The notes beneath the pieces were generated by a model, which saw nothing but the letters and a program-made list of their open reading frames with translations, made no database searches and was not told the origin of the DNA. DNA of 64,000 bases from Pseudomonas phage phi9_PA9. The position numbers and the translations under genes are program-made. Positions 6,012 to 8,320 of the stretch are shown here, piece by piece. The stretch lies in sequence record PQ093904.1; one strand, given 5' to 3'. Numbering within the stretch: position 1 is the stretch's first letter; each line of letters begins with the position of its first letter.

Positions 6012-6797
6012 ATGCATCGTCGAACTATGTACAGATTTAGCTTATCATATTCCAATAAACTTATTAATAATAACCCACTTGGTTTTACAGTCGAGAGTTA
6101 TCTTGAAAGCTGGTTTGACAAACTCAAGTGTCGATTAACTAAAGGTTATACCAAAAGCCATGCTATTCATTTTCGTGGAAGTTGGAAATACTTTGAATTA
6201 GATCAATATAAGAACAATGCTTTCTTCAATCAATATCACATGGTGATGCAGTCACTAGAAGATCTAGAAAGAAAGATTAGTGGAGTGATTGGGTTAAGTA
6301 TCAAAATCACTAAACCAGAACGACATTTATTTCATGTTCTATTTAACCATGAAAAGATTATTCTATCCCCTAATGGCATTATCTTTGATGTACGTGTTCC
6401 AAAACACACCGTGATAGCTAATCCTGATGTTATGGGATATCGTAATTGCAATGTAGATAAACTGACGGTATTTGGCGAGCGCTCTAAAGTTAACTATGTG
6501 GTTAAACAAGTACGTTATGCCTTAAAGCAGAAAGGGGTGACAACTGTTGCCAATAGTTCAATGACTCGTTTTTTATATGACCTATTTCATCCAAAATACA
6601 GAGACAATCAAATTTATAACTACGGCATGACTATGTCTGATGTTTATGTAATGGCCGTATTCAAAAATGGGTATACGGAAATCTATGGTAAAGATGTAGG
6701 TGAAATATTTGAAAGTCATACTCTAGATTTTCTAGAACGTGAATACATGATCTGTGGACAATATTTTCCTAAGCTATCCAGAGGGATGCTAGTATGA
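6012..6797 (+). CDS. hypothetical protein (261 aa), translationally coupled to the AAA ATPase
   Basis: The track ORF 5937 start crosses the terminator hairpin at 5964..5990, so the start was moved to the ATG at 6012. Its stop overlaps the ATPase start (ATGA). Confidence 0.5.
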   Translation: MHRRTMYRFSLSYSNKLINNNPLGFTVESYLESWFDKLKCRLTKGYTKSHAIHFRGSWKYFELDQYKNNAFFNQYHMVMQSLEDLERKISGVIGLSIKITKPERHLFHVLFNHEKIILSPNGIIFDVRVPKHTVIANPDVMGYRNCNVDKLTVFGERSKVNYVVKQVRYALKQKGVTTVANSSMTRFLYDLFHPKYRDNQIYNYGMTMSDVYVMAVFKNGYTEIYGKDVGEIFESHTLDFLEREYMICGQYFPKLSRGMLV

Positions 6798-8320
6798 TTA
6801 TAGAAACCTTATTGCAATATTACGCCATGTTCATCGATATCTCTCAGAAGAATATGGTTATGGGTGGAGCTATCGGAATGGCAATTGGTGGTTTATTCTG
6901 GACCACTCTAAGAGGCTTACCAAGTAAACTAGCTAGGTTCGCATTAAATCAGTTTACAGTTAGTCTACATATTACCAACATGGGTAATGGGCTGAACGAG
7001 AAGAACTTTGATTGTTTCATGGAATGGTATATTAAGCAGCCATTAGCTGGATTTAATCGACGTTTTTCAACTAATGTTGATGAGCAAAGTTATAGTGCAA
7101 CTAAACAGAAAATTGGTGTTGGTTTTGGCTTACATTTCTTTCTGTTTAAAGGTAGGTTATTCTGGTTTGTAAAAGCACGCCGGGATAGTCAAAATGCCAG
7201 TCGAGATCAAATGGATATTACTATCCGTGGATTATCTAGGAGTAGTAAACTAATTATTGATTTAGTAGATGCTTACCATTGGCGCCCAAATGAAAGGGGT
7301 CTGACTATTTCACATTGGGATGGTAACCGTTGGGGCAATGAGATTGAAGTTACTAAACGCGATATCAACACGGTGATTTTGCGTAAAGAGATCAAAGAAG
7401 AATTCCTTAATAAGATTGAAGAATTCTATTCTGATCGGAAATGGTACGATGATCGTGGACTACCCTATAAATTCACTTGTGTTCTAACAGGTCCTCCTGG
7501 TACTGGTAAAACCTCAATCAGTAAAGCGATTGCCTCACATTTTAATAAAAATGTTAGTGCACTGTCATTAGCCTCTATGACCAATGATAGTCTTAGGCGG
7601 GCATTTACTACACTACCTAAAGGTAATATTCTTCTAATTGAAGATTTCGATGATACCCCGGCAGTTAAAGATCGTGTTTTAAATGATCCTGTAAAACTAG
7701 ATAAAGAGATAAAGGAATTAGAGAGGAAATATTCTTTTATTGATTTAATTGAAAAATATCCGTCTGCATGGGTTGATCTTAAAGATGACTATGAAGGATA
7801 CTCTGTAGTTGGGTTTAATGACACCATCTATATCTTTGATGAAAATAGCGATGATCAAGGTTTTGGGATAAGTGCTTATGCTATGGCTGAACTGGGTGTT
7901 TCAAAATGGGCCGATGAAAAAGATCCATTATTTACCACAATTCGCCGATGGTGGAAATTAAAGAAGTGCATGAAGAATGGAATCACGTATGAACAACCAG
8001 CTAGCGGATTAACTTTGTCAGCTCTATTAAATGGGCTAGATGGCATTGTTCCACTAGATGAGACTATGACCATTCTAACTACAAACCATCCTGAGAATAT
8101 TGATAAAGCACTTCTAAGGAAAGGTCGCGTTGATTACATGGTGGAGATTCCATATCTACGAGATCAAGAAGTTAGGGAGTATATTAAACTAATGTTCCCT
8201 GACTTCGATATTCCTGAAGATATCAGATTTAAAGATCAGCCAGGGTGTGATGTAATGGCGGCTTTTTCAAATAACCGTTATGACCCTAATGCTTTTATCA
8301 ATAGTCTATTGAAATATTAA
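6794..8320 (+). CDS. BCS1-family AAA+ ATPase with an N-terminal transmembrane segment and an about 130-aa insertion
   Basis: Walker A LTGPPGTGKTS and Walker B ILLIEDFDD are present. LTLSALLNGLDG...ILTTNHPENIDKALLRKGRVD matches the BCS1 sensor/arginine-finger region. WYDDRGLPYKF matches the BCS1_N to AAA junction. An N-terminal hydrophobic helix MVMGGAIGMAIGGLFWTTL is present. Confidence 0.75.
   Translation: MIIETLLQYYAMFIDISQKNMVMGGAIGMAIGGLFWTTLRGLPSKLARFALNQFTVSLHITNMGNGLNEKNFDCFMEWYIKQPLAGFNRRFSTNVDEQSYSATKQKIGVGFGLHFFLFKGRLFWFVKARRDSQNASRDQMDITIRGLSRSSKLIIDLVDAYHWRPNERGLTISHWDGNRWGNEIEVTKRDINTVILRKEIKEEFLNKIEEFYSDRKWYDDRGLPYKFTCVLTGPPGTGKTSISKAIASHFNKNVSALSLASMTNDSLRRAFTTLPKGNILLIEDFDDTPAVKDRVLNDPVKLDKEIKELERKYSFIDLIEKYPSAWVDLKDDYEGYSVVGFNDTIYIFDENSDDQGFGISAYAMAELGVSKWADEKDPLFTTIRRWWKLKKCMKNGITYEQPASGLTLSALLNGLDGIVPLDETMTILTTNHPENIDKALLRKGRVDYMVEIPYLRDQEVREYIKLMFPDFDIPEDIRFKDQPGCDVMAAFSNNRYDPNAFINSLLKY

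Follow-up and report, generated by a model that had tools for sequence, protein, structure and literature searches.

Folded proteins in bacteria are normally exported from the cytoplasm to the periplasm by the twin-arginine translocation (Tat) system, which is powered by the proton-motive force and not by ATP. In mitochondria, the task that Tat performs for the Rieske protein falls to the AAA+ ATPase Bcs1 (BCS1L), to our knowledge the only known ATP-driven carrier of folded proteins across a membrane and one that has been studied in mitochondria only. Here, we describe a Bcs1-type ATPase, gp286, and its upstream partner gp285, encoded by two overlapping open reading frames (ORFs) in a stretch of 64,000 nucleotides of Pseudomonas phage phi9_PA9 (sequence record PQ093904.1; the whole stretch is called the window). 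Tat is a functional analogue of such a protein, but it has no sequence or structural relation to gp286.

Structures of Bcs1 from yeast (6SH3, 9GS2) and mouse (6UKO, 8T14) provide the closest comparison; Bcs1 forms a heptameric ring and translocates a folded Rieske Fe-S domain. Like these proteins, gp286 has an N-terminal hydrophobic helix, a Bcs1-specific domain and a single AAA cassette, arranged in the same order. The Walker A and B motifs, sensor-1, the arginine fingers and the absence of an aromatic pore loop 1 are common to both, and Bcs1 is the best structural match of gp286. Unlike Bcs1, gp286 has about 100 extra residues at the pore-loop-2 position and a dedicated upstream partner gene. 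It also differs in having no mitochondrial targeting context and no evident Rieske client, as the product of a viral early gene that acts in a bacterium. The next-best match in both structure and sequence is YjoB of Bacillus subtilis (PDB 7W42), a bacterial AAA+ protein with a related N-domain. YjoB is described as an uncharacterised ATPase, has no long insertion, and gives a much weaker sequence match (E=7e-17).

BCS1-like genes are found in 152 phage records, and the family extends over many large myo- and siphoviruses. Carriers include Pectobacterium phage phiTE (142 kb), Caulobacter phage CcrColossus, Brevundimonas phages and the 91-kb Shewanella phage KASIA, which we take to be phages that do not form a nucleus. 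Phage orthologues (PHROG 7485) belong to the same family as gp286, and the loop after Walker B is expanded in all of them. Most are 410-470 aa long and have no gp285-like neighbour, and their loop, of 20-75 aa, is rich in P/A/S/E/D; the phiKZ clade differs in having a module of about 120 aa with a hydrophobic core, together with a partner. Orthologues in all three groups of jumbo phages were already reported by Iyer et al. 2021 (Iyer, Anantharaman, Krishnan, Burroughs, Aravind), who proposed a role in membrane-proximal head assembly, so the novelty implied by an earlier, sequence-only note (the original prediction) was overstated. In the literature searched, none of the following is described: the universal expansion at the pore-loop-2 site in phage BCS1, its growth, within a single clade of Pseudomonas phages, into an orphan module that is predicted to be folded, the tightly and exclusively linked partner family of gp285, and the joining of these insertion and partner features to published data on early expression and on ChmA.

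The ATPase gp286 and its predicted membrane anchor

The window belongs to a phiKZ-type Pseudomonas jumbo phage. Its region 5900-8600 has 100% identity to phage PA02 and to nine further phage records, and 96.9% identity to phiKZ, whose genes PHIKZ285 and PHIKZ286 correspond to the two ORFs. Both ORFs lie where the original prediction had placed them, and the features of the pair are as follows.

6012 to 6797, plus strand: gp285, homologue of PHIKZ285, 261 aa; starts with ATG at 6012; isoelectric point (pI) 9.45
6794 to 8320, plus strand: gp286, homologue of PHIKZ286, 508 aa; BCS1-family AAA+ ATPase
6854 to 6910, plus strand: gp286 residues 21-39, predicted single membrane-anchor helix MVMGGAIGMAIGGLFWTTL, Gly-rich; from hydropathy, alignment to Bcs1 and a helix in the model
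6890 to 7375, plus strand: gp286 residues 33-194, BCS1_N, the Bcs1-specific N-terminal/middle domain; from Pfam, with a predicted local distance difference test score (pLDDT) mostly >90 in the model
7490 to 7513, plus strand: gp286 residues 233-240, Walker A GPPGTGKT; G233, G236, G238 and K239 invariant in 103 homologues
7628 to 7651, plus strand: gp286 residues 279-286, Walker B strand ILLIEDFD with E283 and D284; from the homologue alignment and the model
7655 to 7999, plus strand: gp286 residues 288-402, orphan insertion placed after strand beta3 and before helix alpha3, acidic (pI 4.8), predicted to form a small alpha/beta module
8000 to 8128, plus strand: gp286 residues 403-445, alpha3 (LSALLNGLDG), sensor-1 N431 and arginine fingers R442 and R445; from invariant columns and alignment to Bcs1

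By its profile matches, its sequence and its predicted fold, gp286 is a true BCS1-family AAA+ ATPase, as had been proposed. The Pfam family BCS1_N (PF08740) matches residues 33-194 with 44.1 bits against a cut-off of 28.1 and is covered from position 2 to position 182 of its 182 positions, and AAA (PF00004) scores 61.5 bits, also above its cut-off. BCS1_N is present in nearly all of the homologues listed. A phmmer search of all PDB sequences returns yeast Bcs1 first (E=4e-38, over residues 27-287 and 403-469) and mouse Bcs1 at 1e-27; AFG2/SPATA5, YjoB and Cdc48 follow, from 1e-17. The AlphaFold2 monomer model, made from the alignment of 103 homologues, has a mean pLDDT of 88.8. When this model is compared with the PDB by Foldseek, ranks 1-17 are all Bcs1 chains (E 1.4e-26 to 7e-16, target-normalised TM-score 0.5-0.8), and B. 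subtilis YjoB comes next. PHROG 7485 matches gp286 with E=8e-182. The motifs quoted in the original prediction are all present in the gp286 translation, and nothing places the protein in another AAA clade, such as an FtsH-like one, without BCS1_N. An FtsH-like AAA protease was considered and rejected: Pfam detects no peptidase domain, and the NCBIfam FtsH model reaches 44.8 bits against a cut-off of 600, over residues 407-462 only. The PADLOC and NCBIfam models give generic matches to the AAA core, none of them near its cut-off.

The catalytic residues are intact. In addition to the Walker A residues, N431, R442 and R445 are invariant across the 103 homologues, and E283 and D284 are conserved in at least 90% of them. 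Since Walker A, Walker B, sensor-1 and the arginine fingers are invariant or nearly so, gp286 is expected to be an active ATPase. The beta2-alpha2 loop (SLASMT) does not carry the aromatic-hydrophobic-Gly motif of pore loop 1, and neither does the aligned segment of Bcs1. The absence of an aromatic pore loop 1 from both proteins fits a chamber-type mechanism rather than threading.

The predicted anchor is the sole candidate membrane segment in gp286. Residues 21-39 include six Gly and have a Kyte-Doolittle 19-residue mean of 1.51, compared with the usual threshold of 1.6. They are helical in the AlphaFold model and align to the N-terminal hydrophobic segment of Bcs1, which we take to be the Bcs1 transmembrane helix. 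An equivalent hydrophobic segment (at least 1.2) is present in 94% of the 103 homologues, with a median of 1.61. The single N-terminal hydrophobic helix of the original prediction is thus conserved, although its hydropathy is borderline. Across homologues, the mean number of K/R residues flanking the segment is 1.0 upstream and 2.6 downstream, matching the positive-inside rule. Together, these features predict a topology like that of mitochondrial Bcs1, in which the N-terminus is outside and the ATPase is cytoplasmic.

The insertion and the gp285 partner family

The insertion was originally given as about 130 residues at positions 300-425. It is real and it is absent from yeast Bcs1, but it is smaller than this and its boundaries lie elsewhere. 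Residues 288-402 (115 aa) separate the two stretches of gp286 that align to Bcs1, and yeast Bcs1 has 13 residues there, a net gain of about 100 aa. In the model, the insertion lies between the Walker B strand (279-282) and a helix (408-415). In classical AAA proteins, the position after the Walker B strand and before alpha3 is that of pore loop 2. The distance from Walker B to LNxLDG is presumably about 23 aa in yeast Bcs1, by our own count. It is 125 aa in gp286, and for PhiPA3 and two relatives from metagenomes it measures 120-124 aa. The ATPase of phage PS119XW (504 aa), which is 42% identical to gp286 in one unbroken alignment, also belongs to this long-insertion group. In about 65 other phage homologues with both motifs, the distance is 20-75 aa, and the overall median is 45.5. 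With distances of either 20-75 or 120-125 aa, the loop is therefore expanded in every phage relative and far larger in one Pseudomonas-phage clade.

The long and the short loops also differ in composition. Loops of the phiKZ clade are 34% hydrophobic, whereas the ordinary phage loops are 19% hydrophobic, rich in P/A/S/E/D, and look disordered. Structure prediction, suggested in the original prediction as a check, gives the insertion four main helices and a beta-hairpin, with pLDDT 55-83. Searches with the insertion alone find no match up to E=10, either in Pfam (insertions of three lineages) or among PDB sequences. The insertion is the fastest-evolving part of the protein, with 23% identity between phiKZ and PhiPA3 compared with 58-82% in the BCS1_N and AAA domains.

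The partner gp285 has no hydrophobic segment, and its distribution is narrow. A tblastn search over 50,697 phage records finds it in phiKZ-like phages and PhiPA3 only, and a word-based search of 5.8e9 proteins returns PhiPA3 only. An exhaustive HMMER search of 1.84e9 representatives adds gp285 fragments and a single genuine distant relative, P0129 (250 aa, E=6e-7). On its metagenomic contig, P0129 is the ORF directly 5' of P0005, a BCS1 homologue. In PS119XW, a 275-aa ORF that overlaps the ATPase gene by 4 nt is related to gp285 by hhalign (E=1e-4, 170 collinear columns). The ORF 5' of another BCS1 homologue, P0006, is intermediate, matching the PS119XW ORF with E=1e-24 and gp285 with E=1e-4. 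A profile of these five members, run against the 5.8e9 proteins, adds phage BRkr and P0131, the latter with a BCS1-like gene 19 nt 3' of it. The family is thus present in six lineages, and in all six it stands directly 5' of a BCS1 gene, overlapping it or separated by 0-19 nt. A hidden Markov model (HMM) of the family recovers only the expected members among 3,012 ORFs from 88 loci, including 14 short-loop BCS1 loci, and none is found beside the three nearest short-loop BCS1 relatives.

From sequence comparison, gp285 is the founding member of a small, fast-evolving family that is linked exclusively to BCS1-like genes. The confinement of this family to the long-insertion clade is the main reason to think that gp285 works with the insertion. 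Eleven columns of the family are invariant, and H108 is the sole His among them. No fold is assigned to gp285: a model from a 3-sequence alignment has a pLDDT of 56.8, and Foldseek returns nothing below E=0.01 and generic ferredoxin-like matches only. A 552-aa repeat protein (P0128) that matches gp285 with E=2e-7 in five stretches is treated as a repeat-driven match and not used. Several ORFs of about 250-275 aa just 5' of gp285-like genes are themselves weakly alike. PhiPA3 344 and 345 match with E=6e-5 (locus L002, 2315-3934), PhiPA3 345 matches the ORF at 876-1673 of the PS119XW locus (L003) with E=3e-5, and the ORF at 398-1138 of locus L087 matches the gp285 HMM with E=0.003. These ORFs may form a tandem array of very diverged paralogues.

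The two-gene unit proposed in the original prediction is real, given that the gp285 family occurs only directly 5' of BCS1 genes and that 285 and 286 are co-transcribed, but an obligatory pairing goes too far. Two close relatives of phiKZ, Bobae (ATPase 89% identical) and fMGyn-Pae01, have the ATPase but no gp285. In both, the same terminator and leader are joined straight to the ATPase gene, and gp285 is not found anywhere in either genome. The absence is most simply explained by loss, because PhiPA3 has the gene.

An all-against-all BLAST of 14 IMG/VR loci finds no conserved BCS1 neighbour outside near-identical contigs. A gene for a NAD-dependent DNA ligase lies one ORF 3' of BCS1 in two of the nearest short-loop relatives (L089, 6072-8324; L090, 6002-8158), on contigs that have otherwise diverged. 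The 807-aa metagenomic BCS1 homologue P0028 consists of the 462-aa P0018 plus about 345 residues placed directly after Walker A GPPGTGK. This insert has a LAGLIDADG-type Pfam match (PF14528), and it resembles an intein that interrupts the P-loop of this phage BCS1.

Transcription unit and early expression

The signals in and around the two genes are as follows.

5959 to 5984, plus strand: intrinsic terminator hairpin with an 11-bp stem, a UUCG loop and a T-run; from a terminator scan
6001 to 6004, plus strand: Shine-Dalgarno AGGA of gp285; from sequence
6781 to 6786, plus strand: Shine-Dalgarno GAGGGA of gp286, within the 3' end of gp285; from sequence
6794 to 6797, plus strand: ATGA start/stop overlap of gp285 and gp286; from sequence
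8344 to 8532, plus strand: gp286.1, 62 aa
8605 to 8645, plus strand: long hairpin 3' of gp286.1; fold -16.2 kcal/mol, z=-4.08 compared with shuffled sequence

The ATGA overlap reported earlier is confirmed, with the gp285 stop TGA (6795-6797) lying across the gp286 start ATG (6794-6796). The terminator at 5959-5984 (fold -17.2 kcal/mol, z=-5.05 compared with shuffled sequence) is 27 nt 5' of the gp285 start. The hairpin at 8605-8645 is likely the 3' boundary of the unit. The small gene gp286.1 is probably part of the same transcription unit because it is placed between gp286 and this hairpin. It aligns to positions 52-113 only of the 132-position PHROG 32461; its relatives may be longer, or the start may differ here.

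The timing of 285 and 286 is taken from published RNA sequencing rather than from promoter motifs. A sigma-70 promoter scan finds fewer sites than in shuffled sequence. The motif TATATTAC, which we presume to be the phiKZ early motif, occurs in 7 copies in the window compared with 7.8 expected, so it is not enriched and is not used for timing. One copy, at 4644-4651, lies in the AT-rich intergenic gap 5' of gp283.1 and is no more than a candidate early promoter for the series gp283.1, gp284, terminator, gp285 and gp286. The time course consists of the control read counts in the source data of Gerovac et al. 2025, given here at 5, 10, 15, 20 and 30 min.

PHIKZ284: 13153, 19575, 10100, 4310, 3246
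PHIKZ285: 2168, 2531, 782, 397, 304
PHIKZ286: 3541, 4784, 1564, 955, 1011

Reads of both 285 and 286 peak at 5-10 min and fall by 15-30 min. Per nucleotide, the two genes are equal and both are about 6-7 fold under 284, which therefore indicates an early unit that is read through a leaky terminator. When chmA is silenced, 286 holds at 3474-5048 reads, as the early RNA polymerase subunit does; reads of the major head protein rise late only (20-30 min) and in the control only (Gerovac et al. 2025). In the same study, PHIKZ286 is listed as 'Uncharacterized' and assigned to the non-core genome. Its knockdown by antisense oligonucleotides (ASOs) in strain PAO1 lowers ChmA ('++') and leaves the ratio of plaque-forming to colony-forming units unchanged. 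These ASOs bind at -9..+2 and -6..+5 of the 286 start. Both sites are inside the end of 285, so the knockdown may also affect gp285. The two proteins were recovered from infected cells by mass spectrometry after size-exclusion chromatography (SEC-MS) and after cross-linking (XL-MS) by Fossati et al.

The gene 5' of the terminator, the gp284 homologue (5083-5955), is among the most abundant early phiKZ transcripts, with a count of 13,000-20,000 at 5-10 min. In Pfam, the N-terminal domain of Legionella SidC matches it below threshold (18.2 bits, where the cut-off is 25; E=0.0013). The gene diverges fast, with 57% identity to Bobae compared with 89% for the ATPase. Further along the window are six tRNA genes, all on the minus strand: Thr alone at 13832-13908, and a cluster of Asn, Asp, Met, Pro and Leu at 21876-23633.

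Proposed mechanism and its alternatives

The family membership of gp286, its intact catalytic residues, the position and variability of its insertion, the exclusive gene linkage, the early co-transcription and the accessory status, all shown by sequence or by published data, set the frame for a mechanism. Our preferred reading, held tentatively, is that gp286 forms a Bcs1-type ring, early and accessory, that is held in the inner membrane or a derivative of that membrane and handles a folded client, with gp285 and the insertion as its specificity or gating unit. The two proteins would be made from the same mRNA by coupled translation, gp286 within the first 5-10 min of infection. A single N-terminal helix would tether gp286 to the host inner membrane or a derived membrane, with the N-terminus out and the ring in the cytoplasm. 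The ring would enclose a wide chamber that opens and closes at the expense of ATP, as in mitochondrial Bcs1, so that a folded client domain is moved across or inserted into the lipid bilayer and an unfolded chain is not threaded. In the clade of phiKZ, PhiPA3 and PS119XW, the loop at the pore-loop-2 position has grown into a module of about 115 residues. This module and gp285 may together act as a fast-evolving specificity or regulatory unit, in which gp285 binds the insertion as an adaptor, a gate or a client-loader.

Several observations weigh against this reading. The anchor is Gly-rich and its hydropathy is under the classical threshold, and the model of the insertion is only moderately confident. 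The long insertion is kept without gp285 in Bobae and fMGyn-Pae01, so the partner is dispensable at least there. There is no Rieske-like Cys/His cluster and no conserved Cys cluster in gp285, and no Rieske-like gene in the unit. In lysates, gp285 and gp286 are found in size-exclusion fractions with 70S ribosomes and are cross-linked to ribosomal proteins (Fossati et al.), which points to a soluble or ribosome-bound pool.

These last data are the basis of a quite improbable alternative, in which the proteins are ribosome factors, with 286 at the L7/L12 stalk of the 70S ribosome and 285 near the exit tunnel, modulating or localising early translation and possibly tethering ribosomes to the membrane. 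The cross-links of 286 to rplL, rplK and rplJ and of 285 to rpmC agree with this, and early expression is shared with the known ribosome binder gp014. However, Fossati et al. caution that such signals may come from nascent phage proteins under translation, a large ring with its partner could co-elute with 70S by size alone, and Pfam and NCBIfam detect no ribosome-binding domain. An unlikely possibility is that the anchored ring is a dislocase for host takeover or counter-defence, extracting or inactivating a host inner-membrane protein or a membrane-acting defence factor. The insertion and gp285 would then recognise the target and be kept changing by an arms race, consistent with the insertion being the fastest-evolving part and with a narrow, fast-diverging gp285 family that is gained and lost. 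The early, non-core status of the unit fits as well, and so does the lack of a plaque phenotype in PAO1, since Gerovac et al. 2025 predict that such genes matter in other hosts or defence backgrounds. The absence of the pore-loop-1 motif of the extractase kind from gp286 argues against a dislocase, as does the limitation of the PADLOC and NCBIfam matches to the generic AAA core.

The published proposal of a membrane-proximal virion assembly chaperone (Iyer et al. 2021), by which folded head or internal proteins would be bound at the membrane and then loaded into procapsids, agrees with the spread of the family over many large myo- and siphoviruses, as expected for a general morphogenetic role. 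For phiKZ we consider it of low probability. The 285 and 286 transcripts fall as the major head protein rises, a block of the nucleus leaves them in place as it does early genes, and knockdown of 286 leaves plaques undiminished. Outside the gp285 clade, no conserved neighbour was found at the loci examined, where ORFs were compared without functional annotation. Protein traffic across the boundary of the phage nucleus, in either direction, a link suggested in the original prediction, is extremely improbable. The phage does form a nucleus, and ChmA is lowered by the 286 knockdown; however, the wide distribution of the family, with homologues in phages that presumably do not form a nucleus, argues against the link. 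The nuclear shell is a lipid-free protein lattice to which a hydrophobic anchor is unsuited. PHIKZ286 is non-core (Gerovac et al. 2025), so it is not co-inherited with chimallin as a core gene, and the factors to which import is attributed are Imp1/PicA and further Imp proteins (Imp3-6), with no AAA ATPase named in a 2026 review.

A further reading concerns the lipid-bounded early-infection (EPI) vesicle. The EPI vesicle derives from the inner membrane, and therefore its lumen corresponds in topology to the periplasm. A Bcs1-type ring whose ATPase faces the cytoplasm would drive early phage proteins, in folded form, into the membrane of the vesicle or through it. Early transcription, or the transfer of the genome to the forming nucleus, could be aided in this way. 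That gp286 and gp285 are the protein-conducting machine of this vesicle has only a slim chance of being right. It would explain both why expression is early and independent of the nucleus and why ChmA drops when 286 is knocked down. The passage of proteins across the EPI vesicle is listed as an open question in the 2026 review, and the machine, if true, would answer it.

In phiKZ, the gp285/gp286 pair is an early and accessory unit that is probably bound to a membrane. The annotation alone is useful, because the 2025 ASO screen lists PHIKZ286 as 'Uncharacterized'. The pair can be put forward as a concrete candidate, either for membrane steps early in infection that are so far unexplained or for a takeover specific to certain hosts, and its published molecular phenotype is a lower level of ChmA. 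In phages, the family is available in three natural forms, with a short loop that looks disordered, with an insertion predicted to be folded, and with such an insertion plus a partner, and these forms bear on how a chamber selects its client and how it is gated. A viral Bcs1 at work in a bacterium would offer a second case of such a carrier, and one that is easy to handle.

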